Made by a program: the position numbers and the translations under genes | The notes under the pieces: model-generated | What the model was told of the DNA's origin: nothing | The model's input: the letters and a program-made list of their open reading frames with translations, nothing else | Database searches by the model: none | Part shown: positions 40,001 to 57,673 of the stretch, one piece after another | Position numbering within the stretch: the first letter of the stretch is position 1 | Layout: every line of letters begins with the position of its first letter | Source of the DNA: a bacterium | Lineage (GTDB): Bacteria > Bacteroidota > Ignavibacteria > UBA10030 | Length of the DNA stretch: 64,000 bases | NCBI GenBank assembly: GCA_043803945.1 | Contig: JAZDJN010000101.1 | Coordinates: forward strand, 12,790 to 76,789 | Direction: 5' to 3'

Positions 40001-43000
40001 AATGTATCGGTGATGGTCGAATCGAGCAGTGTCGAATATTCCAAAGCACTTGGAACTTTTGCCGGACGCTGATCAACGATTCGGTGCAAATAGACCTTGA
40101 TATATTGACCGGCTACCGGTTGACCGGAGACAATGAAGTACACCTTTCCGGAAATGAACGATCGGTTCAACACCGGAGGATGTCCTCCTGTACCAGGCAC
40201 CTCGACACGAACGATTGATCTCACGGGAACGGGCACACCGAACCGATCAAGCACCGTGATCACTACTCGGTAATTATCCGTTTTGGGCACGGGAATCATA
40301 TAATGGCCGTCTTGCAGCGTGATCTGACTACCAACGAACTGTCCTGTAGAAGTGAAGACCTCGACCAATGCACCTTCAACCGGTTGTTCAGTCTCATTAT
40401 CCATGATCTCTCCTGCAATGGCGCCCGGATAGAAAACGATATCAATCGAGGAAGAGGCATTGCAAAGATCGGACTCTGACACAGAAACAACAGCTTTTGC
40501 CGTCACAATTGAATTACTCGAAATAAGTGCTCTCAAGGAATCGATTGCATAGCCGTTCTTCGTCGGCACAGCCATGGAATCGAGACCGTTGGAATAGAAC
40601 CCGATATCAGTCTTGAAATGAACAATGCTGCCATCCGGTTTCGGATTGCCCAGCGTATCAGCAACAAATGCTTCAATACTCGCAGCCTGAATTCCATTAC
40701 CGATCACCAGAAGCGGAGTGACACGCAGGTGGATGGCGCACGACTTGTCGACAACGATGGCTCTTGTCCATATGACGGCGCGACCCGTATCTGCCCTGGT
40801 GGTGTCGATATAGCCGTACGCGATATTTGGAATCTGCTCATTGTGCGGACGATCTGATGGCACGGTTGCCACGACAAAAATTGTATCGCGCTGGAGAGAG
40901 AGCATCGAATCACGGCGTGCTGCAATGATGTTGTTTGCGAGTGCTGCATTATTCGAAACACTTACCGGCACCAGCGGAGCTTTCAGCGTGTCGAGAATTG
41001 AAACATTATAAATTGTATGATCGGATTTATTCTGGAAGATGATCCGGTAGTTTGCGTTCTCTCCGACCGTCACGACTTCTCGCTCTGCATACTTCCAGAC
41101 TTCAAGATCATCGCCGGATCCTGAGCCACCCGTCGGTTTGCGCGTAATGAAGATTGCCTGCGCGCGGCGCACTTCGCCTGGTAATTCTTTTGCCTGTGCA
41201 GTGACCGTATTCAGAATGCGGGTGTTCACCGGTGCATCCTGTTTCAGCCTGGCATCAATGAACACAGTATCCCGTTTTCCAACAGAGAGGGAATCGAGCT
41301 GATAGGTCACAATGTTGTTCGCCAACGCAGCATTCTGTGAGACTGAAACTCCAAGAATCTCAGCAGCAAGCGTATCTACAAAACTGATATTCGTTAATTT
41401 GACTTCGCCAGTATTGTGCAGGACGATTGTGTACCGGAGCGTTCCGCCAAGTTCCACAGTGTCAAGCGAAACAGACTTGCTGATTGCCAATTGCGGTACC
41501 AACACAACACCGCCACCCTGCTTCTTCGTGACGAAGATAGCTGTTGATCGTTTTAATTCACTTCCGAGTTCCCTGGCACCGGCATACGCTGTATTGCTCA
41601 CCTGTTGATTGGCGGCAACGGAGGAATCAACCTGAGCCTGAATAAACAATGTGTCGCGCTGACCAACCTTTAACGAATCGCGACGATAGGTGATGATATT
41701 ATTGTCAACCTGCGCTCCGGGGAACACTGCGACCGATCTAAGCTTGCTTGAGAGGGTATCTACCAGCTCGACATTCTTCAGTGTAAGATCGCCCGTGTTC
41801 TCCAGTATGATGGTGTAGAGTACTGTTCCGCCAAGTTCCACCGTGTCAAGCGAAACGGACTTGCTGATTGACAATTGCGGTACCAACACAACACCGCCAC
41901 CCTGCTTCTTCGTGACAAAGACTGCCGTTGACCGTTTCCACTCGCCTCCGAGTTCCCGAGCTCCTGCAAATGCTGTATTGCTCACCTGTTGATTGGCGGT
42001 AACGGAGGAATCAACCTGGGCCTGAATAAACAATGTGTCGCGCTGACCGACCCTTAACGAATCGCGCAGATAGGTGATGATATTGTTGTTAACCTGCGCT
42101 CCGGGGAATACTGCGACCGATCTAAGCTTGCTTGACAAAGTATCGACCAGTGTGATATTCTTCAGTGTGAGATCGCCCGTGTTTTCCAGGATGATGGTAT
42201 AGAGTACTGTTCCGCTAAGATCGACAGAATCCTTCGAGACGCTCTTGCGAAGCGCGATCTGCGGATGTGTCCCTGAGCCGGTCGATGTACCTCTGATATA
42301 GACGATCGCTTCAGCTTCGTACCATATATAGCCTGCTAATGAAGTGCCATTATCAGTCGAGGGTGCCACCAATTCATTTGCACTCGCCCACACGTCATTG
42401 ATAATCGTCTGATTTTCCTTCACTGTCGGGAGCACCCGTACCGGGATTTCAAATTGGAACGATTCACCGGGATTTAACAATTCTTTTGAATAGGTCACTA
42501 TCTGTTCGCGCTGACCGGCAGTTCCAGCATCGGAAAGAAGATCGATATACTGACTTGGCAGCGTATCAAGTACACTTATTCCAGTGAGAGGAGCCCAGCC
42601 TTTGTTCGTCAACCGGATTGTATAGAAGTAGAGCCCACCGATATCGACTGTATCCTGCGAGGCTTTCTTTGTCAGTTCAAGTTTGTACTGAACATTCTTG
42701 ATCAAGAGTGATGCCTGCGCAGACTGACCCTGGATCAATGAGGCACCGGCAGTTGCATTGTTCACAAGAGTGGTGTTTTCGGATGTCGTCACAACAGCGA
42801 GAATCAGGTACGTTTCATCAGCACCAACTCTCACGGTATCTTTTATCCAGGAAATGTTTGCACCGGAGACTTGCGGATTACCAGTAGCGGAGAGGAACGC
42901 CAATCCGACCGGGAGAACGTCGCTTACACGCACTGTCGCCAATGGAAGCTCACCGGTGTTTTGTACTTTCAACGTATAGGTAACAGTATCACCTTTACGA

Positions 43001-46000
43001 GCTTCCACCGGCAGCACCTGCTTCCTGAAGGCCATTCCCCTCTTCGCACTCACGGTGATGGTTGTTGTTGCAGATTTCATGCCCGTCTCGTTCGGTTTTG
43101 CATACACGGTATTGAGTATGAGCTGTCCATCGTTCAGGTCAGGTGACACACGTGCGATAATACTTATCGAGGATGTTGCACCGACTGCCAGGTTATCAAT
43201 GACAAACTGTTGCAATTCACTTGCATCGGATGTTTTCTTGGAATTTGCAGAGAACGTTGATGCTCGTGAATTCAGCAGCATCGATGAGAGCGAATCAACC
43301 ACAACAATATTCGTCAATGGGACATTGCCGGTATTGATGACATTGATCGAAAAGAATACTTCTTCGCCTGCCTTCGGATTCGAGGGGGTAGCGACTTTGG
43401 TGATCGTGAATGATGGCTGTGCCGCAATGGTCCGGACGGCAGCGCTGGAGGAAACAGGTGTTACCTGCTGCGCTCCGGCGTAGGCGGTATTGCGAACTAT
43501 CTGGCCTGATGCAACTGACAATGAGAGGTTCGCTGTCACAACGATTGTATCTTGTTTACCGGCCTGCAGCGAATCGAGTTGATACGTCACGACATTGCCA
43601 TTCAACATCACCTTCTGAGAAGCCTTTACTGATGTCAGGAGTGCGTTCAGCGTATCGGAAACGATCACTCCCTTTGCGGTGACGGTTCCGGTATTTGCCA
43701 CGATGACGCGGAATGTCACCGTACCACCGCCGATGGTAGTATCCGGCGACACCGTTTTCTGAATTGAAAGTTTTGGCGTTGGCGGCGGAACCACAATCCG
43801 CGTCGCAACCTTCACGGTGTTACTAGGGATCATACCAGACAATCCTGAAGCACCGGCATAGGCAACGTTCGTGATCGTCTTACCGGAAGTATTCTCTGTC
43901 AGCACACGAACTGTTACACTCACCGAATCGGACTGATTGATGCGCAGCGTATCTCTGGTATAGAGGATCAGATTGCCGGCAATCCGTGCATTATTGCTGA
44001 CGAACACCGGAGCAATAAGCGCAGCGTTCAATGTATCCGCCAGAGAGATCTTGGTCAGCGGAATATTTCCGATATTCTCCACCCGTATCAGGTAGCTGTA
44101 GGTGTCGCTGGCATTTACCGTGTCTATCGATGCTTGTTTCGTCAAGCGCATCTGAGTAACCGGAACAAACGGCTTCACCTGGAGCGATACTTTCGATTGG
44201 ATAGGCGAGGTGTCTGATGACGAACCATAGGCTGTGTTCTCAACCACCTCAGTATTCGTTATCGATAAGGAGACTGAAGCCTGAATCTTTAATGTATCGA
44301 TCGAACCGATCGGCAGGTTTGAGATTGTATACTTTACAAGCGCTGCTGTTCCTGCCGGAGTGACGGTACCTTTTGCACTCGTAACAGTTGTGAATTTTGA
44401 AGAAACCGTATCGACGATGACGACATTGCTCAGCGGGGCTGAACCGATATTTTGAATGGCAATCCTAAACTCAACGTTCTCACCACCGACGGCAGACGAC
44501 TTCGACACGAGCTTCTTGATCGATAAAAGCGGTTTCGGTGGAGGTGGTGTCGTACCGACAGTAATTTGGGCTGATGCCGTCTGTGTAAGACCGGTATTGT
44601 CTTTCGCACTTGCCATGTTTGTAATCGAAGTTTCTGATGGTGTACCTGCCTGAATCCTTGCACTCACTTGTAGTGTTGTCGTTGCTCCGACGCCGAGTGA
44701 GGAGACTGTCCATGTTGCCTTGTTTCCAGAGACCACCGCTCCCACCGCATTTTGCAGGATGAGCTGAGCCGGCAGCGAATCGACGACAGTCAGTTGACTC
44801 AGGTTGGCCGTTCCATTGTTTCGAAGAATCAGATTGTACGTTACATCGTCGCCCGGCAACACGGTCGAAGACGATGCGACCTTATTCAAAGTGAAGGAGC
44901 GGAATGGCAGTGTGATTGTAACGATGCTCGCCGACGAACTCACAGTGGTGTTATTGACATTCTTCACACTGACCGTATTCGTTATCGATGTTCCCGGTGT
45001 AACGGTCGAAAGAATCGAAGCTTTCAGTGTCAATGTCTGCACTGCTCCGACGGCCATGCTTCCAAGATTCCACGTCGCCGTGTTTCCGGAGATTGTCGAA
45101 CCGGAAGCACTCACAAGCTGCATTCCGGATGGCACTGCATCGGTTACCACAACCTGGATGACCGGAACTGAACCGGTATTTCTCACAACGATTGAATAGG
45201 TAATCGTATCACCGGCAACTGGATTGGTGACTGAAGAGGTCTTGCTTACGGCAAAGACCGGCGAGGGCGGAGTCTGTGTGATAACGGTTGCCGACGAAGA
45301 AACCGATGTGTTGTTGACATCCGTCGCTGTTGCTGTATTTGTAATGGAAGTACCACCTGCGACTGTCGAGAGCACGGATGCCCGCAAGGTAAGTGTTGAA
45401 CCAACTCCGATGGCAAGTGTACCAACATTCCATGTCACTGTAGAACCGGCAATCGTTGCACCGGAAGCCGCTATGAGTTGCAGTTGCGCCGGCACCACAT
45501 CAACGATTGTCAATTGATTCACAGCCAGCGTACCGGTGTTCTTTGCTGTGATCGTATAGGTCAGTGTATCACCAGGCAATGGATTACTGATGGATGCCGT
45601 CTTGCTCAACGTGAAGGCGGTGCTTCCCGGAGTGATCGTAATGATCGAAGCAGAAGCGCTCACGGTTGTGCCGGCAGCATCGGTTGCATTGGCGGTATTC
45701 TGGATCGTGGTGTTGCCGGCAACGCTCGTAAGCACCTTTGCATTGAGCTGCAGCGAAATTGTCGTGCCCACGGCAACAGTACCGAGATTCCATGTCGCTG
45801 TGTTACCTGCAATCGTTGCACCGGCTGCTGAGACTAATTGCAGTTGAGCAGGCAATGCATCGACCACGTTCAATTGAATGATAGCTACTGATCCGGTGTT
45901 CTTCACTGTAATCGAATACAGCACGGTGTCGCCGGGCAGCGGATTGTTCACCGAAGCGGTCTTGTTGATCGTAAACACGGGTGACGGCGGTGTCTGTGTC

Positions 46001-49000
46001 GTCACACTTGCTGAGGAGGAGACTGAAATATTATTGACATCACTCGCTGTTGCAGTATTGGTGATCGTCTTTCCGCCGGCTACAGAAGAAATTACTGTCG
46101 CTTGCACGGTCTGCGTTGTTGTTGCTCCCACAGCCAGCGTGCCCAGATTCCACGTTGCCGTATTGCCGGAGATTGTCGCACCGGTGGCACTGGTAAGTTG
46201 CAGCTCGGCGGGCAACGCATCGACGAGCGTGAGCTGATTGACAGAAACCGAGCCGGTATTTTTTATCGTAATAGTGTAAGTCAACGCATCACCGGGCAGC
46301 GGATTATTCACTGAGGCCGTCTTGCTGATGGTAAAGACTGGTGATGGCGGTGTCTGCGTAATGGCACTGGCAGAGGATGAGACCGTTGTGTTGTTGACAT
46401 CGGTTGCCGTTGCCGTGTTCAGAATGGTTGTGCCGCCTGCGATCGAAGCGAGCACGGTTGCCTGGATGCTCAATGTTGATGTTGCCCCGACAGCGAGTGT
46501 ACCGAGATTCCATGTGGCAATACTGCCGGAGATTGTCGCACCAGCAGCAGTCTGGAGCTGCATCGTTGCAGGAATTGTATCGACCACTGTCAGTTGATTG
46601 ACCGGGACCGAGCCGGTGTTCTTCACAACGATCGTGTAGACCACTGCATCACCCGGCATTGGATTATTCACAGAGACTGTCTTGCTTACCGTAAAGACCG
46701 GTGCGGGCGGCGTCTGTGTTGTCACATCTGCAGAAGAAGAGACCGTTGTGTTGTTGATATCTGTCGCTGTTGCCGTATTCGTGATGGTAATTCCACCTGC
46801 GACCGAGGAAAGTACTTTTGCCTCGATGGTCAATGTCGATGTTGCGCCAACTGCCAGAGTACCGAGGTTCCACGTTGCCGTAGTACCGGATACTGTTGCT
46901 CCTGCTGCGCTGATCATTTGCAAACCGCTCGGCAGTGCATCAACAATCGTAAGCTGATTGACCGGAACGGAGCCGGTATTCTTCGTTACAATTGTATAGA
47001 CGATTGTATCGCCGAGCATCGGATTGCTTACAGAGACAGTCTTACTCACCGTAAAGACCGGTAAGGGTGGTGTCTGGGTCGTCAGGCTCGCAGAAGAAGA
47101 GACGGAAACATTATTGACATCCGTCGCTGTGGCAGTGTTTGTGATCGTTGTTCCACCCGCAACGGAAGAGAGAACTGCCGCTTGAATTGCGAATGACCTG
47201 GAAGCTCCTACGGCGAGAGTATCGATATTCCATGCAGCTTTATTGCCGGCAATTGTCGCACCCGAAGCGCTTACCAGTTGAAGTTCTACAGGCAACAGAT
47301 CGATAACGGCAACTTGAATAACCGGATTCGTACCTGTGTTTCGGACAACGATGGCGTAGGTCACTGTATCGCCGGGCAATGGATTGTTGATGGAGACCGT
47401 CTTACTGACCGTAAAGGTTGTCGTTCCTGCAGTAACCGTTGTAATATCGACTGAAGCATTAAGCGATGTGTTATTGACATCAGTCGCTGATGCGGTGTTC
47501 GTTATGGTTGTACCGCCAGCCACCGATGAAAGAACGGTTGCCTGAACGGTTACGGTCGATGTGGCGCCAACTGCTAACGTGCCAATGTTCCATGTTGCAG
47601 TATTACCGGAAACCGTTGCACCGAAAGCACTCGTGAGCGATAACTGAGCTGGCAGGCTATCGACGACCGTTAATTGATTCACTGCCACCGAGCCGGTGTT
47701 CTTCACCGTAATCGTATAGGCGATAGCATCGCCGGGGAGCGGGTTGTTGACAGATGCTGTTTTGCTGATTGTAAAGAGCGGTGATGCCGGTGTTGCAGTG
47801 GAGATACTCGTCGAGGATGAAACAGAAATATTATTGTCATCGGTAGCTGTGGCCGTATTGGTGATTATCGTGCCACCGGCAACAGAAGTGAGCACTGAAG
47901 CCTGTATTGTGAGAGTTGATGTTGCACCAACCGCCAATGTACCAAGATTCCACGTTGCTGTATTGCCGGTAATCGTTGCGCCCGCGGCGCTCGTGAGTGA
48001 AAACTGAGCTGGCACTACATCGACAACCGTCAATTGATTGACTGCGACCGTGCCGGTATTCTTCACCGTAATGGTGAACGTTACAGCATCGCCGGGCAGC
48101 GGATTATTGACGGAAGCAGTTTTACTGATTGTAAAGACCGGTGTCGGTGGTGCGCTGACCGTTACCGCTGCAGAGGAAGAGATGTTTAAGTTCGTGCTAT
48201 CTTTTCCCGTTGCCGTGTTCGTAATTGTTGTTCCTGCTGCAACCGAGGATAAGACTGTTGCCTGTACGGAAAGCGTCGTTGTTGCACCAACCGCCAATGT
48301 GCCAACATTCCATGTTGCCGTATTTCCGCTGATGGTTGCGCCTGCAGCGCTGGTTAACTGCAACTGTGCCGGCAACGGATCTGAGACAACGAGCTGAGTA
48401 ACTTCAATCGGGCCGGTGTTTTTTACTGCGATTGTATAGGTTAACGCATCACCCGGCATCGGATTATTGACGGATGCCGTCTTGCTCACCGAGAATACTG
48501 GTACTAATGGTGTTAGCGCCGAGAAGGTCGCCAACGCTGAATACGTTGTTCCAGCATTATCTGTCACCTGCACTGAATTTGATACGATAGTACCAACAGC
48601 AATTCCACCCTTCATCCGGGCAGTGAGTGAGTAGGTACTTGTTGCATTCTGAGCAAGCGATGCTACCGACCAGGTTACCGTATTGCCGGAAATTGTTGCA
48701 CCCGGAGCGCTCACTACAACCAGTTCGACTGGCACGGTATCAACGACCGGTACATTACTCTCGACACCATTACCGCCATTCTTCACGGTGATCGTGTATG
48801 TGATGAAGTCATTCGTTGTTGCGGTGCTCATCGATGACTGTTTCTGCACCGAAAGATTATGGACAGTGGCAACGAAGACGGACGCAATATTGCTCTGCGC
48901 GGTTAAATTTACACCGCTTATAGTTGAGTACTGGACAGTACAGATGTTATCGATCTGCGTACCAGCGGCCGTTTGTGAAAAGACAACATTACTGCTCACC

Positions 49001-49053
49001 ATGCACAGAAGCAGAAGAACCGGCAACAGGATATGTTTATTGATTTTTGTCAT
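37099..49053 (-). CDS. Giant DUF11-repeat protein (about 24 DUF11 domains, Big-1-like, carboxypeptidase-regulatory-like and SdrD-B-like domains, two OmpA-like peptidoglycan-binding domains)
   Basis: Signal peptide; ~120-aa repeats K-T-x-S...PGD..TYTI.V.NTG...D.LP...GT.ITNTA; IIGKVFFDRNRN; OmpA_C motifs GHTD..LSDGRA..GYGETRP..NRRVE and GHTD..LSMARA..GFGSKRP..NRRVE. Confidence 0.9.
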   Translation of the reverse strand: MTKINKHILLPVLLLLCMVSSNVVFSQTAAGTQIDNICTVQYSTISGVNLTAQSNIASVFVATVHNLSVQKQSSMSTATTNDFITYTITVKNGGNGVESNVPVVDTVPVELVVVSAPGATISGNTVTWSVASLAQNATSTYSLTARMKGGIAVGTIVSNSVQVTDNAGTTYSALATFSALTPLVPVFSVSKTASVNNPMPGDALTYTIAVKNTGPIEVTQLVVSDPLPAQLQLTSAAGATISGNTATWNVGTLAVGATTTLSVQATVLSSVAAGTTITNTATGKDSTNLNISSSAAVTVSAPPTPVFTISKTASVNNPLPGDAVTFTITVKNTGTVAVNQLTVVDVVPAQFSLTSAAGATITGNTATWNLGTLAVGATSTLTIQASVLTSVAGGTIITNTATATDDNNISVSSSTSISTATPASPLFTISKTASVNNPLPGDAIAYTITVKNTGSVAVNQLTVVDSLPAQLSLTSAFGATVSGNTATWNIGTLAVGATSTVTVQATVLSSVAGGTTITNTASATDVNNTSLNASVDITTVTAGTTTFTVSKTVSINNPLPGDTVTYAIVVRNTGTNPVIQVAVIDLLPVELQLVSASGATIAGNKAAWNIDTLAVGASRSFAIQAAVLSSVAGGTTITNTATATDVNNVSVSSSASLTTQTPPLPVFTVSKTVSVSNPMLGDTIVYTIVTKNTGSVPVNQLTIVDALPSGLQMISAAGATVSGTTATWNLGTLAVGATSTLTIEAKVLSSVAGGITITNTATATDINNTTVSSSADVTTQTPPAPVFTVSKTVSVNNPMPGDAVVYTIVVKNTGSVPVNQLTVVDTIPATMQLQTAAGATISGSIATWNLGTLAVGATSTLSIQATVLASIAGGTTILNTATATDVNNTTVSSSASAITQTPPSPVFTISKTASVNNPLPGDALTYTITIKNTGSVSVNQLTLVDALPAELQLTSATGATISGNTATWNLGTLAVGATTTQTVQATVISSVAGGKTITNTATASDVNNISVSSSASVTTQTPPSPVFTINKTASVNNPLPGDTVLYSITVKNTGSVAIIQLNVVDALPAQLQLVSAAGATIAGNTATWNLGTVAVGTTISLQLNAKVLTSVAGNTTIQNTANATDAAGTTVSASASIITITPGSTAFTLSKTASISNPLPGDTLTYTITAKNTGTLAVNQLTIVDVVPAQLQLIAASGATIAGSTVTWNVGTLAIGVGSTLTLRASVLSTVAGGTSITNTATATDVNNTSVSSSATVITQTPPSPVFAVSKTSSVTNPVAGDTITYSIVVRNTGSVPVIQVVVTDAVPSGMQLVSASGSTISGNTATWNLGSMAVGAVQTLTLKASILSTVTPGTSITNTVSVKNVNNTTVSSSASIVTITLPFRSFTLNKVASSSTVLPGDDVTYNLILRNNGTANLSQLTVVDSLPAQLILQNAVGAVVSGNKATWTVSSLGVGATTTLQVSARIQAGTPSETSITNMASAKDNTGLTQTASAQITVGTTPPPPKPLLSIKKLVSKSSAVGGENVEFRIAIQNIGSAPLSNVVIVDTVSSKFTTVTSAKGTVTPAGTAALVKYTISNLPIGSIDTLKIQASVSLSITNTEVVENTAYGSSSDTSPIQSKVSLQVKPFVPVTQMRLTKQASIDTVNASDTYSYLIRVENIGNIPLTKISLADTLNAALIAPVFVSNNARIAGNLILYTRDTLRINQSDSVSVTVRVLTENTSGKTITNVAYAGASGLSGMIPSNTVKVATRIVVPPPTPKLSIQKTVSPDTTIGGGTVTFRVIVANTGTVTAKGVIVSDTLNALLTSVKASQKVMLNGNVVTYQLDSLQAGKQDTIVVTANLSLSVASGQIVRNTAYAGAQQVTPVSSSAAVRTIAAQPSFTITKVATPSNPKAGEEVFFSINVINTGNVPLTNIVVVDSLSSMLLNSRASTFSANSKKTSDASELQQFVIDNLAVGATSSISIIARVSPDLNDGQLILNTVYAKPNETGMKSATTTITVSAKRGMAFRKQVLPVEARKGDTVTYTLKVQNTGELPLATVRVSDVLPVGLAFLSATGNPQVSGANISWIKDTVRVGADETYLILAVVTTSENTTLVNNATAGASLIQGQSAQASLLIKNVQYKLELTKKASQDTVDIGGLYFYTIRLTNKGWAPLTGISVLDTLPSQYIDLLSDAGTAGQREQIVTYSKELLNPGESFQFEIPVRVLPTVKENQTIINDVWASANELVAPSTDNGTSLAGYIWYEAEAIVYIRGTSTGSGTHPQIALRKSVSKDSVDLSGTVLYTIILENTGDLTLKNITLVDTLSSKLRSVAVFPGAQVNNNIITYLRDSLRVGQRDTLFIQAQVDSSVTANQQVSNTAFAGARELGGEWKRSTAVFVTKKQGGGVVLVPQLSISKSVSLDTVELGGTVLYTIILENTGDLTLKNVELVDTLSSKLRSVAVFPGAQVDNNIITYRRDSLKVGQRDTLFIQAQVDSSVAANQQVSNTAYAGARELGSELKRSTAIFVTKKQGGGVVLVPQLAISKSVSLDTVELGGTLRYTIVLHNTGEVKLTNISFVDTLAAEILGVSVSQNAALANNIVTYQLDSLSVGKRDTVFIDARLKQDAPVNTRILNTVTAQAKELPGEVRRAQAIFITRKPTGGSGSGDDLEVWKYAEREVVTVGENANYRIIFQNKSDHTIYNVSILDTLKAPLVPVSVSNNAALANNIIAARRDSMLSLQRDTIFVVATVPSDRPHNEQIPNIAYGYIDTTRADTGRAVIWTRAIVVDKSCAIHLRVTPLLVIGNGIQAASIEAFVADTLGNPKPDGSIVHFKTDIGFYSNGLDSMAVPTKNGYAIDSLRALISSNSIVTAKAVVSVSESDLCNASSSIDIVFYPGAIAGEIMDNETEQPVEGALVEVFTSTGQFVGSQITLQDGHYMIPVPKTDNYRVVITVLDRFGVPVPVRSIVRVEVPGTGGHPPVLNRSFISGKVYFIVSGQPVAGQYIKVYLHRIVDQRPAKVPSALEYSTLLDSTITDTLGMYLFGDLPQGKYEISIHDGLLEGTVRTSLPDSGHYVLNVNIPIILNPEVAFVKNGPAEANAKDTVTYSVSLTNIGRIATTNTIVVDSLDRRMRFISATNGGGYDSLNHRVVWSIGKLDSVGGAANKFSASVTVRFADSLKGLLTLVNRAVVTSNEAYPMTSIVNTKVLVPELQIVKIALKKMVEVGDIVTYQIRVTNRTTGLTLTDVQVADRIPFGFRYVENSAYRGTVKLPEPTGTRELRFLVADSIAPNETIEFMYRLVVGAGGIESDGINTATAFANALNKVIVSSASAVEQVQIQRGLFTERGVIIGKVFFDRNRNAHQDFGEVGIKGVELITEGGIRIVTGDDGKYSIPDIEPGEHVIMVRKASLPKFSNLIVGYNEFAGDPASRFVKLPASGIARADFYLEDLTPTIVWEPVFLRKTVAASGELTIRRIAEPQNLVFTQEERLPDLTLSGLNFEVGKAVLKPAAFSLLNQLGKQLRENARTRVVISGHTDWSPINTKEFKNNFELSDGRANAAKNYLVNVLGCTPEQITTRGYGETRPIASNTTVQGRANNRRVEFDIQTEQERVQNLDTLSVTIQLPISYRGSASISKIEIQDQLDKGYQFVEGSGKLNGTPLKASVQDQSVVWSIEGIGRSFKKTLEYKLNVVTPRSDRVTLKSRTQKVTYWIGNDAVTITDTLVTRTETAIGIRSRNSNYVLSGILFNEAQSAIIDTNITALKIASIMLTQDRKAQVIIEGHTDSREAGEKGESAAMSLSMARAHTVAKYLRSSYGINPEKIKPMGFGSKRPVAANSTPVGRQSNRRVEMRILRNIFVNGVFAEGGIDSTGVASRRLVPKAGRDQFDSTMTVSKGQRLFMHLELNRSAATMAEQTVVVDSLAKGLQLVPNSIYKLKGVADVTTVGNTLTIQCGSEETTVLLFEVEVTDEVAAKGSLISRMTIQRQQKTGEKRQEDAQPFMLQVKTQ

Positions 49054-49107: not shown

Positions 49108-50856
49108 CTACTTCACAGTTACTTGAAACTTAAACCATACTTGTGTGCTAGCTGTCGTTGGGCCAGCTAGAGGGTTTTTTAGTGTAACCACAAGGTTTGG
49201 AGTGCTCCAAGTTACATCCGCATCAGCATTCGTTGTGGCTCCAGCAACAAACGCTGGGAAGGATACCCAGGCTGAGCCGCCATCTATTGAACTCTGAAAA
49301 GTTCCTGATGTTGTAATGAAATCAACGTACCCCGTTGGTACTGCGTCATTGATCGCTACTACGTATGCAGGCGCATGTCCAGTGTTTTGAATTTTGATTG
49401 TATATGTAATAACATCACCAGGTAATGGATTTGCTGGTGAAGCAATCTTTCCTACTACGAGCAGCGCCTTTAACGGTGTGGTAACACCTGTTACCGCCTG
49501 TGTCTGCGTTCCCGTTTGGGCTGTACCAGTCCAGGTAATAGTCACAGGTGTAAAATCTGTCGCACCGAATGGGATGTATGGAGCTACCCAAAACTCAACC
49601 GTACCACCACCTGAAGCCGGAACAGTGACAGTTACATTACCACTGTTATTGATCCAGGTGAACTTAGCGGCATTCGTTGAATCCAGGGTTGTTTGGGCAC
49701 CTACAGGAGACCAGTTCGACATCCACCAAGTGCCATCGTTTGAAATGACGACGTTGGTTGCTGCACTACGGTTGTTTGAGAGCACAACCCGATACACAAC
49801 ACCTGCCGAAACCTCATTGGAAGCGCTCGCTGTTCCAGCGAGTGATCCCTGGAGAGTACCGCTATAGTACGCCTGTATTTGCATCGTAAATCCACGCGAT
49901 GTCCACGCGGCGGTGGCGTCAACAGTAGGAGATTCAGCTCTAGTATGTTGAGTGCTCTGATTTGAATATGTTGCTGCAGTAGTGTAGTTAACTGCCGATC
50001 CATCACCAGCAGAGACCGTACCGGTAAATGTTAATGTTACCGAAGCACCCACTCCTAAACTTGGAATAGTCCAGGTTCCACCACTATAAGTTCCATTTAT
50101 TGAGCTAACTGAGGTAAGACCTGTAACCGTTAAAGGAATAGTAGTATTTCCATACGTGGCTTTGTCGCCATTATTCGTGTAGGTTACTGTATAGGTGATC
50201 TGTTCACCAGGAACCGGATTTGCCTCTGAGGTTGTCTGCCCAGTGACCGCGAGAATTGCCCGATCAATTGTAATATGATCGGTTCGTGGAGCTGGATTAT
50301 TACCATCACCAGTCTTTGCAGTAAAGTCGATTTGATTATCATCACTAATAGTAACACCAGCAGGAACAGTAACGACGGCCCAGATCTTTGTCGTGACATC
50401 AGAAGTTTGCTGATTTCCCCCCACTGTCTGTGCAATTGCTACAACATTGCCACCACCACCTAATAGTGGCTCCGTACCAGCAAATGGAACTACTCCGTTA
50501 GCATAGTAGTAGGTTATCGTCCAAGGACTACCCATTGATTGCACGGCTGTGATGGCGATATTATCATCATCATTCCCAGTATTCGTGACATTGATTGGGA
50601 TGGCGATGGTCTCATTGCCGTATGATGAATATGTAGCACCGGCATCGACTGAGACTCCGTATTTATGACCAACGGTTACGGAAATTGAAGCGACCTCGTT
50701 GGCGTAACTATTGAGTCCTGTAACATCTTTATAAGAAACCGTAGCTGTATTCATAATCACGGTTCCAGCCTTAGTTCCAGATGCTACAAGTGTATGTGTT
50801 GAGAATACGAGCAGTAAGGCAAGTATTCCTAACAGCAGAACATTTGAGTGTTTCAT
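49108..50856 (-). CDS. DUF11-domain secreted protein, putative major filament subunit (582 aa)
   Basis: Start reassigned to MKHSNVLLLGILALLLVFSTHTLVA (GGAG 7 nt upstream, signal peptide). The mature N-terminus is SGTKAGTVIMNTATVSY and the C-terminal DUF11 ends abruptly at FKFQVTVK. Confidence 0.85.
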   Translation of the reverse strand: MKHSNVLLLGILALLLVFSTHTLVASGTKAGTVIMNTATVSYKDVTGLNSYANEVASISVTVGHKYGVSVDAGATYSSYGNETIAIPINVTNTGNDDDNIAITAVQSMGSPWTITYYYANGVVPFAGTEPLLGGGGNVVAIAQTVGGNQQTSDVTTKIWAVVTVPAGVTISDDNQIDFTAKTGDGNNPAPRTDHITIDRAILAVTGQTTSEANPVPGEQITYTVTYTNNGDKATYGNTTIPLTVTGLTSVSSINGTYSGGTWTIPSLGVGASVTLTFTGTVSAGDGSAVNYTTAATYSNQSTQHTRAESPTVDATAAWTSRGFTMQIQAYYSGTLQGSLAGTASASNEVSAGVVYRVVLSNNRSAATNVVISNDGTWWMSNWSPVGAQTTLDSTNAAKFTWINNSGNVTVTVPASGGGTVEFWVAPYIPFGATDFTPVTITWTGTAQTGTQTQAVTGVTTPLKALLVVGKIASPANPLPGDVITYTIKIQNTGHAPAYVVAINDAVPTGYVDFITTSGTFQSSIDGGSAWVSFPAFVAGATTNADADVTWSTPNLVVTLKNPLAGPTTASTQVWFKFQVTVK

Positions 50857-51104: not shown

Positions 51105-52235
51105 TCAGAAAATTACTTTATACCGCACGGTTCGTTCTTCCCCGGGGTTGATGATCGATTTAAAAGCCCATTGAATTTCTTTCACTGGCTCACGAGCAGG
51201 AGGGGCTGCTGCAGCGCGTATGAGCTTCACCTCCCCGCCTCCATTTTCCAAACTTCTCTCAATGAGCTTAGCCCCTTGCGGCAATGGATTTGAGACCGTG
51301 ATGTTGGAAGCCCCTGCTGATCCAATATTATGATATCGGAGCGTATAGGTTACAGTGTCTCCACCCTTGATTACTTCCTTACTTGCATTCAGACTTACTA
51401 CGATCTTCGGATCCGCCTTCCCCGACACTGCAAAGGCTTGCATAAGATTCGCTTGAGTAGTGACATGCTCTTTCGTTGATACTGTCGTCGCAGCGATTGA
51501 AAATTCCAATGCAGAAACAAGTGCATTGGCTTTAATTTCTTTCCCAGTACTGGAGACATTAAATGAAGCCCCTTGAATCTGAAGGTGTCCTCCTCCCTCG
51601 GCTTTCAGAACCATGACCGGATTCAATCGAAGTGTTGTATCATTAGAGGCAATCGTTATAACTTTCTCATCCCCTTTCAACACTCCAGTTGATTTTCCCA
51701 TAAACTTCAAATTCAAGTTCAATGGAGTTTTTGATTGAACAGAAAAGTTAAAAAACATTTTTTTCCCTGAGGGAGCATTCTGATCCGATTTCAAACCGAT
51801 CTCTCGAATCAATATGAAATCATAACCGGGGGTCTTCACAGCAAAACCTGAACGCAGAGAGGTTGGAGATGATTTTGTCTCCTTCGCAATTTTCTTCCAT
51901 GAATCTATCTCTTTTCCAAAATATTCATCAAGAGTGACATTCTTGATGAGAGCGTTCGATGCTCCATCACGCAACTCCAATACAGTGACTGATCCTAAGC
52001 GTTGGGAATCCTCTTTAAAAAGAATTCCGAAGCGGCCTGATTGGCTTTTCGGAAGGAGATCATCAAGTTTTCCCATCGCTACTGGGACGAAATCGCCATC
52101 AGCGATCCCTTGTAAGGTAATGGGAGCAGTTATTTTATATTGAGGGAGTTTCCACTCAATCGATCTCTGCGCTTGAGAGATTGATGCGAACATCGTAAGC
52201 GCAAGCAACACAACAAATATTTTAATACGTACCAT
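51105..52235 (-). CDS. Exported protein with a single degenerate C-terminal DUF11 domain (putative chaperone)
   Basis: Signal peptide; Lys-rich rather than Thr/Ser-rich; GDTVTYTLRYHNIG..VSNPLP..PGEERTVRYKVIF. Confidence 0.8.
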   Translation of the reverse strand: MVRIKIFVVLLALTMFASISQAQRSIEWKLPQYKITAPITLQGIADGDFVPVAMGKLDDLLPKSQSGRFGILFKEDSQRLGSVTVLELRDGASNALIKNVTLDEYFGKEIDSWKKIAKETKSSPTSLRSGFAVKTPGYDFILIREIGLKSDQNAPSGKKMFFNFSVQSKTPLNLNLKFMGKSTGVLKGDEKVITIASNDTTLRLNPVMVLKAEGGGHLQIQGASFNVSSTGKEIKANALVSALEFSIAATTVSTKEHVTTQANLMQAFAVSGKADPKIVVSLNASKEVIKGGDTVTYTLRYHNIGSAGASNITVSNPLPQGAKLIERSLENGGGEVKLIRAAAAPPAREPVKEIQWAFKSIINPGEERTVRYKVIF

Positions 52236-52261: not shown

Positions 52262-55200
52262 CTAACGCACCTGATATTTATAAGTAATGGCTTTAGTCTG
52301 ACCAACATTTACCGTTGTTAGACTAATTGTAACTTGAGTTTCTGTAATCGTCACAACTCCACCAGAATCTGGTTGCGACACAGCATCGATCGTGATACTG
52401 GCTGGCACATATGTCACTGTCCCCGGAATGATATCGACAAAGGACACAAATCCAGCGGTCGCTCCACCATAATTATAGACTGTTACTGTATAGGTCACTT
52501 GGTCCCCAGGAAGGGGTGTTGAATTATTGGCCGTCTTTGCTATTGTCAATCTCGGCCTTGCTATAATTTTCGTCTTCGTCGTGTCACTCCGCGTCCAACT
52601 GCTCTGATGCGCGGCTTTAATGGATGACCAGTTAACGAACGAATCGACTGTGGAGGAATAAGCAGTCATGGTAACGCTTCCACTGCTCGGATTCAGTGTG
52701 CCGAGGTTCCACTCAACGGCCTGTCCGGTATTGGTACCGCCGCCGCTGCTCGCGATGTAGGTTAATCCTGACTGCAGTGTATCACGCAGAAGCATGTTGC
52801 TGAAGAAGGCATTTCCAGTCAACGAATAATTGATCGTATAAGTAATCGTATCTCTCGGTGTCGGCAAGCCATGCAATTCACCAAGCGCTGACGCTGACTT
52901 TGTAATCGTCAGTGTCGATGATCCAACAATCTGCGTCAATGTTGAATCGCGATAACTGCCGCCATTATTGGAAGAACCGATTGCTTTATTATAGATGTCT
53001 GTCGTACCTACCGGCATTGGATTATTCACTGTCACCTGGAAGGTGAAGACAAAACTCGTATCACCTGCTTGAATTGACGATGGTGTGGCACTGATCACTG
53101 TATTGTCTGGTGAATTAATAGTTGCACTACCCGTAAGCGAACTGGCAACATATGTTGTGTAATTTGGAATCGTATCATAAATCGCTATCGTCGTTAATGT
53201 GTCCGTGCCAATATTTCCGTACTTAATCGTGTAGGTAATCGTCGAGCCCGGTGTGTTGCCAGTCGCCGAAGCGGTCTTCCGTATCCATAACCGAGGTGCG
53301 GAGTACACAGTGGTCTGCACGACGTTGCTGTTATGCATGTTTGTAAGCTTGGCCGTGATCACATGCGCAGTGTCTTTGATGATAGAATTGTTATCAATAT
53401 TGCCGATGACCCGTAACTGAAATTCCACCGTTTTTGATGTACTCGACGTCACGGTTCCAACATTCAATCCAGTTACAACCGGAGAATTCCCACCGATATC
53501 ACTTTGCAGCACGTTATTCACTTTTGTGGTGTTCGGGATGTACGCCAGTGTCGAAGGAACCCAATCAGTGATATAGGTCGAGTCGGCCGCAACGATGGTT
53601 GAGTTCGAGATCACGATCGAATACTTCATCGTATTGCCGGCATAGATGGTCGTGCTATCAACCGACTTCACGACTGCAAGCTGCGGATAGAGAACATTCG
53701 TTAATGCTGTGTTCGATGTGAGAGCAGAAATTCCGTTCGAATAGATCACAGCCCGATTTTGAAGCTGCGAAACACTATTGAGCGTCATCGGCTTTGGCAG
53801 ACGAACCTTCAGAATAACAGAATCCGTCGCACCTACCGCAACCGATCCGAGGCTCGTACTATCCCATTTCACCACAATGCCTGAGAATATGCCGCTGCGG
53901 TTTGCGCTGACAAAGAGTGTCGATGAGGGAATCGTATCTTTAATAGAGACACCGTATGCTCTTGCGCTGCCGGTGTTGGTGTATTTCAAGGTATAGATAA
54001 GAGTGTCCGCTGGGCCGACACTTGTCACATTCACACTCTTCACCAGTGTTAAATGCGGAATATTTGCCACCGTATCACGAGCAAAGGACGAGAGATTCGT
54101 CGCTTCATCATTCGTAAGACGAGCGGTATTGGTAATAACGGTATCATTCGGTGCACCGCTGTCGATGGTAACTTTAAAAGTCACGCTCCCGTTTGAGTTG
54201 GCATTGACGGTTCCAAGACTCCAGACCACTCTCCCTCGCGGCGAAGGAGTAGCAAGGAAACTTCCACCGCCCGTTGCAGAACCCGCTACATACGTCATGC
54301 GACCGGGAATCGTGTCGGTAATAATCGTGTTCGTTGAAGCAGCAACACCCGGTGCATTGGAATAACTGATCGTATAGGTCAACTCTGTACCAACAGGCGC
54401 CTTCGTTACGTTCACACTCTTGTTTAACGTCATGCTGGGCGGCGATTGAATCACGGTAGCGACGGTATTGGTATAGGTCGCCGGCGTCGTATTTAATGCA
54501 CCTTTATTTGGAATCGTCACATTGGCGGTAATAACTCTCGCCTTAATCGTAATGGCAATGGAAGTACCATTTGGAATATTCGTTCTCTGCCAACTCAATG
54601 CCTGGCCATTCTGAGTGAAGGTCATGCTCCCATCGTTGGATTGCGATACGAATGTGAGGTACGTGGAGAGTGTATCGACAATCGTTCTGGTAATATTTCC
54701 ACCGGTATTGTTGACATAGTTCAGTGTATAAGTCAGTGTGTCGTTCTGGAATCCCGTGGTCTTCTCGACCGTCTTGTTGATTGACTCAATGCCTGAAGCG
54801 ATCGTAATGGGCAGCGTGGTGGCGACAGTGTCTTGAAGGGCGCTCACAAGGACACCGCGTGCTACGGCCGTATTCGTGTATGTCGCATTTCCCAGCGCTA
54901 CCTTTGCTCGGAAGATCAAGGAGTCTTTGACACCAGGATTAATTGACTTGGCGGGTGAGAATCTCCACCGGACAGTACCCGTTGCACCCGCTATCGGTGA
55001 TGACGTTGGCGACAATGATCCGCCTGTCGTACTGACATAGCCGAAACCGCTTGGGAAGATATCAACGAGCGTATCGAGCGTCGCAGCATAGTAACCGGTG
55101 TTATGAAGAACGAAGGTAAATGTCGCCGTATCGCCAGCCGCATAGATCGATTTATTGGATTTCTTTGTCAACGCTACGACCGGGATCGCTGTCACATAGA

Positions 55201-57673
55201 GCGTTGCCTGCGTTTGATACGGATTGGTCACATCCGATCTAATGACGGCAATATTATTCAGCGGCTGATTGGAGCCTGGTGTCGGATAGGGATTGGCCAC
55301 TGTGGCCTGGAACGAGATCGTGTTGTTCAAATTGCCGCCGCCCGGTGTAACTGTTCCGGCGTTATAGACAAGGATTTGTCGGAGCGGAGTTAACACGGTA
55401 TCGATACGCGTCGGGGCCGGCGTGGAAGTGCCGACTACATAGCGCAACGTTGATGGCAATGTATCGTTGATCACAACATTTGGCGCGTCGGCGGTACCGA
55501 CGTTTCCATATAATAGAGTATAGGTGACGTTATTTCCCGGATTGGCATTCGCCGGGCTGACCGATTTCGAGATATTCATTACTGCACCGAGAACATTACT
55601 GCTCACTGTATTGCTAATCGCTGTGTTCGGCAAATTAGATGCAGCGAGGTTTGCCGTGTTGATAAGAGGATTTGTTCCTGAATAGGGATTTGTCACCTGG
55701 AACGTGATCGAAACGCTGCCTGAAGCAGAAGCAAGGAGATTCCCAAGACTCCACGTCACTTTTCGTGTCGAGGAGTTGTAGGATCCTCCGCCTGTTGCAG
55801 AGACAAAGGTAATACCCTGTACCAGGGAATCGCTCAGTACCGCAGACTTGAGTGTATCAGAGCCGGTGTTTTGATAATTGAGTGTGTAACTGTACTGCGA
55901 TCCTTGCACAAGGCCGGCCGGCGTTGAAACAGATTTTGTTACCGCGGCGGAGACCCTGCTAACCACCACGGGAGCAACATTCAATGCCGAATTAAAGAAT
56001 GTTGAACCTTTCGCAGAGATAGAGTTGTAGTACGTTCCTGAATTTGTATCCGCCAGAACTGTAAACACTAATGTCTTGCTCTGTCCCGCTGCGATAGTAA
56101 ATCCACCACTCCAAGTCCACCGGACAGTCCCTGTTGCATCCAACGAAGGAGAGGTTGTGGGAGGATAGAGCGTACCTCCCGTCGTACTTTGATATTTGAA
56201 TCCCGTTGGAAGAACATCAGTCAATGTATCGATCTTGATTGACGTTGCTTGGGGATTTGTGACAGTAACAGTATAGGTTACTGTCCGGGCAGCCGGAGGA
56301 TCATTGGCAATGACGATGGACTTATCGACTGTTTTCGCCATCGTTGCAGGAATGATACCGCAATTGTTATCGACAACTGCGTAAATGTTATTGTACTCTG
56401 CAACGGTCTGATCGTATGAATCGGCAACATTATTTAATGTGTCATTTGCAATGACCTTAATGAAATACAATCCGCGCGGAATAGAATCTGTCTTCCAGTT
56501 GTATGACCATACACCCAGGGTTGTTGGCGTACCATAGCCGATCAGTGTCCATGTTTTTTCAACCTCATCCAGGACTCCATTCCCGTTGATATCAAGTGCG
56601 TAGTAGAATTTTGTATCGACAACACTGCTGACAACCTGCTGCGTCGCACAACTTCCTGAATTGAGTACCCGCTGCGCAGTCAGAATGGAGGTGGTCAACT
56701 GCACTGTCGGGCAGTAGGTCGCCGCTACGGTCATCACAACAACCTTGGCGAGATTCTCATTACCAAAGTTAATCGGATCACCACCCGCCATAATACCGGT
56801 TGTGCTCGCGCAAAACGCACCGACGTAGGCAAAATCTTTTTGGAAGGGATCATTGAGACTGTTTGCCGTAGTGAAAGATGCTGAAAACACCGAACTCGAT
56901 CCCCAAGTCGGTCCGCCCCAGGGTGCAGCATCGAATAAAGCAATGGGAATTTGGAAATCAAATAAGTAATCTCCGTTGGATGCTGTTGCGTTGATAATGC
57001 GGCTAGTCCCAAAATCGAGCGTGTCTCTTCCGGTTGACCAATTTGCACCAATGGAATTTCCATCCTTATATCTCACCAACTTGTTTGCAGAATCCCGTGC
57101 AGCATACTGCTGGCCGATTCTATAAATACTTGGATTCGCAACGTAATCGACAGATTGGGTTGTGGTCAGAGCGGAATAGATAACCGAAATTCGATCGATG
57201 ACATTACCGCTCGTTCCAGATGATCCATCGAGAAATACTGCAAAATCCCGCCAGCCATCACCATTGACATCGAGGAATAATGTCCAGAGTGCCGAGTTCC
57301 ATGGATCACTGTTAGCAACATTGCCATAGTTATAAGCATTGGGATCACTTTCGAGCCTGATCCTCACAAAAATTCGTGTACCATCATATGAGACATAAGC
57401 ACTGGGGAGCGACAGATCGGGAGTGCCAGATGAAATATTGGCGATGTTTTGTGGACTAGTACCTCCATTCGATTGATCTTGTGTTTTGGGATCCGCGAGT
57501 GCATTCCCTTTCAGTGTGTAAGAGACCCATGAGGAATTGGCAGGCCACGCACCGGGAGAAAAGATTGGAGATTGTCCTAACATTTCTAAGCAAGAAAAAG
57601 CCAAAAGGAGAAGAACACTCAGAGAGAGTTTTCTCCAGGATTTTTTCATCAATGATTTATTATTCTTGCTCAT
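52262..57673 (-). CDS. DUF11-repeat adhesin-like protein (unique N-terminal head plus about 11 DUF11 domains)
   Basis: Signal peptide; ~400-aa Trp/Asp/Cys-containing head (LDVNGDG, LDINGNG); tandem DUF11 domains, the last ending at ITYKYQVR. Confidence 0.88.
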   Translation of the reverse strand: MSKNNKSLMKKSWRKLSLSVLLLLAFSCLEMLGQSPIFSPGAWPANSSWVSYTLKGNALADPKTQDQSNGGTSPQNIANISSGTPDLSLPSAYVSYDGTRIFVRIRLESDPNAYNYGNVANSDPWNSALWTLFLDVNGDGWRDFAVFLDGSSGTSGNVIDRISVIYSALTTTQSVDYVANPSIYRIGQQYAARDSANKLVRYKDGNSIGANWSTGRDTLDFGTSRIINATASNGDYLFDFQIPIALFDAAPWGGPTWGSSSVFSASFTTANSLNDPFQKDFAYVGAFCASTTGIMAGGDPINFGNENLAKVVVMTVAATYCPTVQLTTSILTAQRVLNSGSCATQQVVSSVVDTKFYYALDINGNGVLDEVEKTWTLIGYGTPTTLGVWSYNWKTDSIPRGLYFIKVIANDTLNNVADSYDQTVAEYNNIYAVVDNNCGIIPATMAKTVDKSIVIANDPPAARTVTYTVTVTNPQATSIKIDTLTDVLPTGFKYQSTTGGTLYPPTTSPSLDATGTVRWTWSGGFTIAAGQSKTLVFTVLADTNSGTYYNSISAKGSTFFNSALNVAPVVVSRVSAAVTKSVSTPAGLVQGSQYSYTLNYQNTGSDTLKSAVLSDSLVQGITFVSATGGGSYNSSTRKVTWSLGNLLASASGSVSITFQVTNPYSGTNPLINTANLAASNLPNTAISNTVSSNVLGAVMNISKSVSPANANPGNNVTYTLLYGNVGTADAPNVVINDTLPSTLRYVVGTSTPAPTRIDTVLTPLRQILVYNAGTVTPGGGNLNNTISFQATVANPYPTPGSNQPLNNIAVIRSDVTNPYQTQATLYVTAIPVVALTKKSNKSIYAAGDTATFTFVLHNTGYYAATLDTLVDIFPSGFGYVSTTGGSLSPTSSPIAGATGTVRWRFSPAKSINPGVKDSLIFRAKVALGNATYTNTAVARGVLVSALQDTVATTLPITIASGIESINKTVEKTTGFQNDTLTYTLNYVNNTGGNITRTIVDTLSTYLTFVSQSNDGSMTFTQNGQALSWQRTNIPNGTSIAITIKARVITANVTIPNKGALNTTPATYTNTVATVIQSPPSMTLNKSVNVTKAPVGTELTYTISYSNAPGVAASTNTIITDTIPGRMTYVAGSATGGGSFLATPSPRGRVVWSLGTVNANSNGSVTFKVTIDSGAPNDTVITNTARLTNDEATNLSSFARDTVANIPHLTLVKSVNVTSVGPADTLIYTLKYTNTGSARAYGVSIKDTIPSSTLFVSANRSGIFSGIVVKWDSTSLGSVAVGATDSVILKVRLPKPMTLNSVSQLQNRAVIYSNGISALTSNTALTNVLYPQLAVVKSVDSTTIYAGNTMKYSIVISNSTIVAADSTYITDWVPSTLAYIPNTTKVNNVLQSDIGGNSPVVTGLNVGTVTSSTSKTVEFQLRVIGNIDNNSIIKDTAHVITAKLTNMHNSNVVQTTVYSAPRLWIRKTASATGNTPGSTITYTIKYGNIGTDTLTTIAIYDTIPNYTTYVASSLTGSATINSPDNTVISATPSSIQAGDTSFVFTFQVTVNNPMPVGTTDIYNKAIGSSNNGGSYRDSTLTQIVGSSTLTITKSASALGELHGLPTPRDTITYTINYSLTGNAFFSNMLLRDTLQSGLTYIASSGGGTNTGQAVEWNLGTLNPSSGSVTMTAYSSTVDSFVNWSSIKAAHQSSWTRSDTTKTKIIARPRLTIAKTANNSTPLPGDQVTYTVTVYNYGGATAGFVSFVDIIPGTVTYVPASITIDAVSQPDSGGVVTITETQVTISLTTVNVGQTKAITYKYQVR

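Follow-up and report, generated by a model that had tools for sequence, protein, structure and literature searches.

A secreted half-DUF11 protein without reactive residues, possibly a reversible holder of donor hairpins, in a putative fibre operon of Ignavibacteria

Introduction

This report concerns a secreted protein, here designated X, that is encoded at 51105-52235 on the minus strand of a bacterial DNA stretch of 64,000 nucleotides (nt) (the window: GenBank assembly GCA_043803945.1, contig JAZDJN010000101.1, positions 12,790 to 76,789 of the forward strand; Bacteroidota, Ignavibacteria, UBA10030). X is the product of the second gene in a five-gene minus-strand cluster (33986-57673) whose order is tip-type, X, shaft-type, base-type and barrel-like, and it ends in a truncated DUF11 domain in which the two residues expected of a reactive half-domain, a first-strand Lys and a catalytic Asp, have been replaced. 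As set out below, the replacement runs through the family of X, and a structural model places the N-terminal hairpin of the shaft-type subunit in the open groove of the truncated domain. An earlier note on this DNA, made from the sequence alone, had read X as a catalytically dead acceptor that could serve as a chaperone; we regard it as plausible, at just under even chances, that X is a reversible holder of donor hairpins, acting as a chaperone or as a transient cap. The case of X would be one of strand-complementation fibre assembly, and it rests on an uncharacterised protein family.

Protein X and the genes around it

The features of X are as follows (aa, amino acids).

51105..52235, minus strand: gene for X, product of 376 aa, secreted protein (translation of the open reading frame, ORF)
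52170..52235, minus strand: type I signal peptide of X, aa 1-22 (MVRIK...ASISQA, cleaved before QRS; translation, cleavage site judged by eye)
51420..52169, minus strand: N-terminal domain of X, aa 23-272, galactose-mutarotase-like beta-supersandwich (AlphaFold2 model, VIA-align, Foldseek)
51108..51413, minus strand: C-terminal truncated DUF11/CLIPPER domain of X, aa 275-376 (Pfam DUF11, TIGR01451, strands of the model)

The translation contains the motifs quoted earlier for X, namely PKIVVSLNASKEVIKGGDTVTYTLRYHNIG followed by NITVSNPLPQG, and closes with RTVRYKVIF at the stop codon. Its signal peptide carries no lipobox Cys and forms a helix over residues 2-18 in the AlphaFold2 model, which was built with a 39-row homologue alignment and reached a predicted local distance difference test (pLDDT) score of 92.4 and a predicted template modelling (pTM) score of 0.87. 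The N-terminal ~250 aa, for which the earlier note had suggested a structure prediction, are modelled as a supersandwich over residues ~22-273, the range covered by VIA-align. The best matches are 8rf9_A (Z 12.3, root-mean-square deviation 5.0, 215 residues aligned), 5wzn_A (Z 12.2) and 3mwx_A (Z 11.6), and many glycosidase N-domains and aldose epimerases follow at Z 10-12, such that the fold is recovered across the whole domain (Z 10-12.3) from many unrelated members; Foldseek likewise returned glycosidase N-domains together with the P1 domain of YidC. The match is an assignment of the modelled fold, not of a function. A helix (255-271) follows the supersandwich in the model.

Residues 275-376 are modelled as an Ig-like domain of seven strands in which the chain ends after the F-strand. 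Pfam DUF11 (PF01345) matches residues 279-337 with an E-value of 3e-8 and 34.4 bits (cutoff 24.6), spanning only positions 3-57 of the 114 in the profile, and TIGR01451 matches at 36 bits against a cutoff of 24. All 39 aligned homologues end directly after the F-strand (...FKVxVx), and the late strand that would bear the Asn is absent from the same chain. A signal peptide and a C-terminal truncated DUF11 domain in a protein that lacks a donor hairpin constitute the architecture of a tip-type subunit; X has neither the live acceptor (Lys and Asp) nor the low-charge, Thr/Ser/Val-rich repeat body that also mark such subunits. Neither PapD_N nor PapD_C is among the Pfam matches to X at E-values up to 0.1, and no donor-like N-terminus was found in the translation.

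The other four genes of the cluster are these.

52262..57673, minus strand: tip-type protein, 1803 aa, 11 DUF11 repeats and a C-terminal truncated DUF11 domain with Lys and Asp (translation, Pfam)
49108..50856, minus strand: shaft-type subunit, two DUF11 domains (Pfam) and an N-terminal donor hairpin (ORF 49108-51054; likely start ATG 50856, MKHSNVLLL...)
37099..49053, minus strand: base-type protein, 3984 aa, 24 DUF11 repeats and two OmpA domains near the C-terminus (translation, Pfam)
33986..37090, minus strand: barrel-like protein, 1034 aa (conserved at the end of the operon)

The tip-type protein ends RLTIAKTA...FVDIIP...YKYQVR and has no donor motif; the shaft-type subunit ends LLVVGKIA...AINDAVP...FQVTVK. 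Both C-termini are DUF11 domains cut before the last hairpin. They keep the Lys of the first strand as well as the Asp within D-x-[IVL]-P, and the earlier note had stated that both residues are kept. Past their signal peptides, the shaft-type and base-type proteins begin with a hairpin of the pattern GT-x-I-x-N-x-A-x-V-x-Y, which corresponds to the end of a complete DUF11 repeat (in the base-type protein, TAAGTQIDNICTVQYS). From these sequences we infer that tip, shaft and base are joined head to tail through a split isopeptide domain, with a putative covalent bond at each junction. The 1034-aa barrel-like protein has no Pfam family and no sequence relative in the Protein Data Bank (PDB); judged by its sequence, it is taken to be a predicted outer-membrane barrel with an N-terminal Ig-like part.

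Among the 19 operons parsed, 15 keep Lys and Asp in the terminal tip acceptor; the tips of loci L040 and L041 were included in this parsing and that of L039 was left out. In these three loci, which belong to one genus, covalent chemistry seems to have been given up at several junctions together: the donors of their shaft-type and base-type proteins have Ser or Val for Asn, and the first shaft paralogue keeps Lys and Asp.

X is separated from the likely start of the shaft gene by 248 nt (50857-51104) and from the tip gene by 26 nt, and X-shaft spacers of 150-270 nt occur in seven other operons as well. The X-shaft spacer of the window holds no clear sigma-70-type promoter or terminator, in a phylum that uses other promoter types. 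Divergent from the cluster and adjoining it, at 58134-59663 on the plus strand, lies a gene for a 509-aa protein whose N-terminus is an outer-membrane beta-barrel domain and whose C-terminus is an OmpA domain; the protein also has six bacterial TSP3 calcium-binding repeats.

Loss of the reactive residues

The positions at which X would be expected to carry its reactive residues, and a nearby Lys, are encoded as follows.

51390..51392, minus strand: Leu282 codon, isopeptide Lys position (alignments; contact with donor Asn12 in the complex model)
51288..51290, minus strand: Asn316 codon, catalytic Asp position (alignments; contacts with donor residues 12-15 in the model)
51378..51380, minus strand: Lys286 codon (NASK), four residues past the canonical Lys position (alignments)

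The register of the Lys was fixed from the DUF11 repeats of the window and the tip acceptors, in which it lies 10 residues ahead of the Gly in the (P)GD motif, and Asn316 of X was aligned to the Asp of D-x-[IVL]-P. In the CLIPPER structure PDB 9IFR, as described in the accessible part of its report, the triad is Lys715/Asp748/Asn806 (PMC12617251), and its spacing is compatible with the register adopted for X.

A word-indexed search with X gave one relative only, and a full HMMER scan with its N-terminal 276 residues gave 43 proteins at E-values up to 0.001. The 39-row set comprises 38 of these 43 and the word-search relative; left out were fragments of 234, 298 and 313 aa and a pair of long repeat proteins whose match is confined to residues 154-208. 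A set of 55 proteins was drawn from genomes of the same order and comprises X of the window, 14 from context loci and 40 that were fetched. Some lineages are represented in both sets, and the proteins in them are related to one another; the counts below are therefore descriptive and non-independent.

At the Lys position, the 39 homologues carry Thr (25), Ile (4), Val (3), Ser (2), Met (2), Leu (1), Gln (1) or Ala (1), and the 55 genome-derived proteins carry Asn (34), Thr (13), Ser (5), Leu (1), Val (1) or Gln (1); Lys occurs in neither set (0/39 and 0/55). At the Asp position, Asn prevails in both, with 32 Asn, 3 Gly, 3 Asp and 1 Gln among the 39 and with 50 Asn, 3 Gly, 2 Ser and no Asp among the 55. 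Other DUF11 landmarks are retained in the latter set: N303, G305 and W356 in 55/55 and D293 in 54/55. The earlier reading of an incomplete DUF11 domain with Leu at the Lys position and Asn at the Asp position is therefore borne out by the translation and the Pfam match, and the loss of both residues that it expected among homologues is what the alignments contain. It had also named, as an observation that would overturn it, placement of the NASK Lys at the reactive site. This position holds Lys in 24, Arg in 10 and another residue in 5 of the 39 homologues, and Lys in 35 of the 55, and is thus not a conserved Lys; Lys286 was rejected as a shifted reactive Lys on the grounds that Arg or another residue replaces it in 15/39 and that it is absent from the listed least-error contacts of donor Asn12, for which the complex model lists residue 282 instead.

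X therefore has none of the three residues of an isopeptide domain, that is, a first-strand Lys, a catalytic Asp and a late-strand Asn in the same chain. As judged from the aligned sequences, the loss of the reactive residues in the family is systematic and not chance drift, and absence of the Lys and the acid predicts that X forms no isopeptide bond. The Asp-to-Asn exchange takes one base change and is isosteric, and for this reason it fits selection for binding without chemistry.

Predicted binding of the shaft hairpin

The feature modelled as the partner of X is the following.

50647..50784, minus strand: donor hairpin of the shaft-type subunit, mature residues 1-46 (ASGTKAGTVIMNTATVSYKD...; alignment of 21 shaft N-termini)

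In the alignment of these 21 N-termini, Asn12 of the shaft donor corresponds to the Asn that takes part in the isopeptide bond when a DUF11 domain is complete. Mature X (residues 23-376, with the 39-row alignment) was modelled with the first 46 mature residues of the shaft-type subunit (with the 21-row alignment), and the pair scored an ipSAE of 0.76 (runs 0.76, 0.80 and 0.75), compared with 0.01 for the best of three controls; 58 of 80 solved complexes and 2 of 110 mismatched pairs attain the ipSAE mark used, a calibration that is approximate for custom alignments. At least 96% of contacts are shared between the runs, and the pLDDT of the partner is at least 80. On the side of X, the modelled interface comprises residues 275-284, 286-291, 295/297/299/301, 307-322, 361-362 and 376, and on the donor side residues 4, 10-23, 27, 30-39 and 41. 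The donor strands 10-23 and 30-39 lie against the X strands 275-284 and 307-322, in silico the mode by which a catcher binds its tag, and donor Asn12 contacts residues 282, 297 and 316 of X, the site of the canonical triad. We are confident of the predicted fit, namely that the groove of X, by its likeness to an intact DUF11 domain, is compatible with the shaft hairpin.

The N-termini of the shaft-type and base-type proteins are the only hairpins that resemble the missing DUF11 strands. Filling of the groove in cis by the N-terminus of X itself was considered and rejected, as the alignment ranges place the N-terminal strands within the supersandwich (22-273); in the complex model, confident placement of the foreign hairpin also disfavours it. 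The AlphaFold2 model of the complete shaft-type subunit is poor (pLDDT 68.6, pTM 0.45), and self-complementation is not readable from it.

Composition, size and distribution

X contains 9.3% Lys, 6.5% Thr and 22.6% charged residues, in keeping with the earlier description of a Lys-rich protein unlike the Thr/Ser/Val-rich subunits, of which the shaft has 2.3% Lys and 16.5% Thr and the tip 3.3% Lys and 14.1% Thr. Charged residues (Lys, Arg, Glu and Asp) make up 22.0% of the barrel-like protein and 9-14% of segments of the tip; in the base-type protein they rise from 5.8% over residues 1-1000 to 23.5% at the end that bears the OmpA domains, and the exposed fibre parts overall lie at 5.8-14%. The composition of X thus resembles that of the envelope-proximal parts and not that of the exposed fibre, which is circumstantial evidence. 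The gradient of charge along residues 1-3984 of the base-type protein may in itself mark exposed versus envelope-embedded parts. Across 55 genomes X measures 348-386 aa at 20-45% identity, and the tips measure 1385-3214 aa, leaving out a 337-aa tip-like ORF of locus L050 and the contig-cut tip of L038.

X is flanked by a tip-type and a shaft-type gene in the 15 operons examined; the base-type gene comes next and then, where the contig allows, the barrel-like gene. Relatives (14 loci, six-row alignment) come from records labelled Ignavibacteriales, Ignavibacteriota or Bacteroidota metagenome-assembled genomes, and a few bins are labelled otherwise. A profile search (E-values up to 1e-25) found X in 60 of the 277 genomes of the order, of which a single-sequence search, an undercount, recovers 20, and the barrel-like gene is present in 68 of the 277. 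By hand comparison of the lists, 59 genomes have both, nine the barrel alone and one X alone; the nine barrel-only genomes are split over 130-810 contigs or have the barrel only as fragments, and the genome with X alone is 77% complete.

Many genomes of one family have two paralogous systems whose barrels are ~47% and ~37% identical to that of the window. In the second operon type, the barrel gene precedes that of the tip (L039-L041) and has an additional shaft-like gene of ~600-660 aa on its own upstream side; in the five genomes checked, X is carried by the second system type only (e.g. G109:C1:1594525-1606280). Two genomes have two copies of X each, L034 and L042 in one (G475:C9 and G475:C3) and L017/L023 in the other (G476). 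The ORF heads and tails of the G475 copies are identical as printed, and one copy lies by itself, outside any fibre operon. X of the G475/G476 genus and of L035 has 357 aa, with ~20 fewer residues in the N-terminal domain (profile positions ~94-116). A 1313-aa 'tip-X fusion' at L060 (G317:C85) was rejected, since the frame arises by reading through a masked run of N that links the last part of the tip gene with the middle of X; no fusion was seen.

A proposed reversible holder of donor hairpins and its rivals

In the proposed mechanism, a live acceptor half-domain, with its Lys and catalytic Asp, would receive the Asn-bearing N-terminal hairpin of the next subunit and so complete a split DUF11/CLIPPER domain. 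X, which has no donor of its own, would clasp the hairpin of free shaft-type and perhaps base-type subunits non-covalently near the cell envelope and thereby prevent irreversible coupling that is premature or joins the wrong subunits. It would then yield the hairpin to a live acceptor, whose isopeptide bond would make the exchange one-way. This scheme supposes that X is periplasmic, that it binds hairpins reversibly and hands them over, and that its supersandwich docks to the barrel or to the body of a subunit. An accessory role is reached by elimination, X being the sole product of the operon that is neither fibre subunit nor barrel, and several observations count for a holder: the site is dead and yet conserved, the groove is open, the hairpin is predicted to fit, X co-occurs with the barrel, and its size is constant and its charge that of envelope-proximal parts. 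We advance only tentatively, at somewhat less than even chances, the fuller claim that X would be a natural pilus chaperone of an 'acceptor type' and the first of its kind, a dead split-isopeptide half that holds a hairpin reversibly in the Gram-negative periplasm and passes it to a live catcher whose covalent bond drives the exchange, within an undescribed outer-membrane fibre pathway that has SpyCatcher/SpyTag-like junctions and is anchored to peptidoglycan through OmpA.

A number of observations weigh against this proposal. The tips of L037, L040, L041 and L050 lack both Lys and Asp, with Leu or Asn at the former position and Val, Ala, Thr or Leu at the latter; a second shaft paralogue in L040, which itself has a donor, is dead as well; and donors in L039-L041 lack the Asn and have Ser there. 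Non-covalent junctions would therefore appear to be used structurally, and 'dead' alone does not mean 'chaperone'. The modelled fit, moreover, is to be expected for any truncated DUF11 domain and its missing hairpin, and location, affinity and exchange are outside its reach. X also resembles a tip. The X gene begins 5-49 nt past the tip gene in 13 of 15 operons (the other two have a doubtful start call), and its spacers to the shaft gene are often 150-270 nt; a profile of the C-terminal domain of X scores those of tips at 36-62 bits and those of shafts at 28-36 bits; and X, like a tip, has an acceptor and no donor. The modelled supersandwich is a fold typical of carbohydrate-active proteins and would suit a lectin-like tip. 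Finally, in five operons (L043, L045, L047, L048 and L049) tip and shaft are adjacent, X is absent in cis and the triads are intact. A conclusion from these five that X is dispensable was withdrawn when the profile search found one X elsewhere in each genome: each has two fibre operons and a single X, which lies beside the second barrel. This arrangement suits a trans-acting factor, on the assumption that the X-less operons use the lone X in trans. The earlier proposal of a dead acceptor chaperone consequently stands in part: X is a half-domain that has lost both residues and whose groove is predicted to accept the hairpin, and the step from 'dead' to 'chaperone' is weakened by the dead tips and shaft.

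These same observations make a serious rival, though a less likely one, of the view that X is a structural distal cap or minor tip, seated non-covalently on the first shaft hairpin and bearing its supersandwich as a glycan-binding head. X shares with the tip an acceptor-only logic of parts, a C-terminal domain of the greatest likeness and close gene linkage; galactose-mutarotase-like folds are common among sugar-binding modules; the four loci with dead tips provide non-covalent tips in this very system; and the predicted fit of the shaft hairpin would serve a cap equally. However, the size and motifs of X are constant where tips vary widely, its charge resembles that of the barrel and of the OmpA-bearing part of the base and is unlike that of the low-charge, Thr/Ser/Val-rich exposed parts, a single X is present per genome even where two operons each have their own tip, and the dead site of X keeps polar Asn or Thr whereas those of dead tips have Leu, Ala or Val. 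If X were a negative regulator that competes with live acceptors for hairpins and determines how many fibres form or how long they grow, with no help to assembly, the same predicted binding would be called for, X could not extend the chain for want of a donor, and non-covalent binding would render the effect titratable; the complex model cannot tell a brake from a chaperone, but near-universal presence with the barrel (59/68) is more in keeping with a needed part than with a brake, and we consider this view improbable.

There is a similarly slim chance that the groove of X takes a strand of some other partner, for example the barrel or the tip, and that X serves the export pore as an adaptor or plug. 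Such a role would give a function to the conserved N-terminal domain, which has none assigned, and would agree with the conservation of X together with the barrel; against it, DUF11-like hairpins are confined to the shaft-type and base-type N-termini, and the shaft hairpin, the one partner modelled, is confidently placed with its Asn at the dead triad. That X is a decaying, functionless remnant of a tip-type gene is scarcely credible: loss of the reactive residues would be expected of a remnant, but reading frames are intact at constant length across the 55 divergent genomes, the landmarks are invariant with Asn conserved at the former Asp site, and the fold is modelled with high confidence.

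Implications

If X is indeed a reversible holder of donor hairpins, strand-complementation assembly would here be chaperoned from the side opposite to that of PapD/FimC, and nature would have placed reactive and unreactive versions of a split isopeptide domain in the same pathway. The system would then offer a direct way to study how a cell restrains protein ligation that is irreversible and self-catalysed. It would also supply a testable model for fibres of Ignavibacteria-like bacteria, a system that we did not find described in the literature, and protein engineers would gain a catcher/tag pair that is both natural and non-covalent. Should X prove to be a cap or tip, covalent and non-covalent junctions would be mixed in one fibre.

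Comparison with known systems

PapD and FimC are periplasmic chaperones of chaperone-usher pili, and PapD donates a strand to the groove of the pilin. X as proposed resembles them in being an accessory factor whose gene accompanies those of fibre subunits and an outer-membrane barrel, and in a non-covalent capping by fold complementation that would be displaced at assembly. The differences are that the polarity is reversed, with X, the groove side in the model, offering its groove to the hairpin of the subunit; that X consists of a supersandwich and half a DUF11 domain, and has no PapD match in Pfam; and that hand-over from X would turn irreversible through the isopeptide bond. PapD/FimC is the functionally nearest class, and X is not a member of it.

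A further parallel is ElrE, which, according to the part of the literature on it that we consulted, is a membrane-anchored chaperone of the enterococcal WxL pilus that primes the pilin by strand complementation. X, near-universal with its barrel, is likened to ElrE, and its distribution resembles that of a core component; ElrE differs in belonging to a Gram-positive system, in its membrane anchor and in its unrelated domains (DUF916/DUF3324). Archaeal threads and the BsaA fibres of Clostridium perfringens combine donor-strand complementation with an intermolecular isopeptide bond (PMC9715654; bioRxiv 10.1101/2024.11.04.621531), as we propose for the fibre junctions here; their folds and secretion routes are different, and the accessible portions of these reports mention no dead-acceptor accessory. 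In the literature covered, which did not extend to subscription journals or bioRxiv supplements, neither a split-DUF11 fibre nor a dead-acceptor accessory protein was found described.

With the DUF11/CLIPPER domain of PDB 9IFR, X shares the Pfam family, and the triad reported in the accessible text can be mapped onto it (PMC12617251); X differs in having lost the Lys, the Asp and the entire Asn-bearing hairpin. The same text notes that some DUF11 domains have no isopeptide bond, and within it a split or intermolecular form is not described (PMC12617251). A closer chemical parallel is SpyCatcherEQ (Glu-to-Gln), an inactive SpyCatcher that, in the section consulted, serves as a negative control beside the active one, SpyCatcher and SpyTag recognising one another at 0.2 uM (PMC6539128). 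Like X, SpyCatcherEQ is, on that account, an incomplete Ig-like isopeptide domain in which the catalytic acid has become an amide; it is, however, man-made, derived from the CnaB2 domain of a Gram-positive adhesin, and it retains the reactive Lys that X has lost too. The half-domain of X occurs naturally, is conserved and has a 250-aa domain joined to it, and the engineered SpyCatcherEQ is the chemically nearest protein to X.

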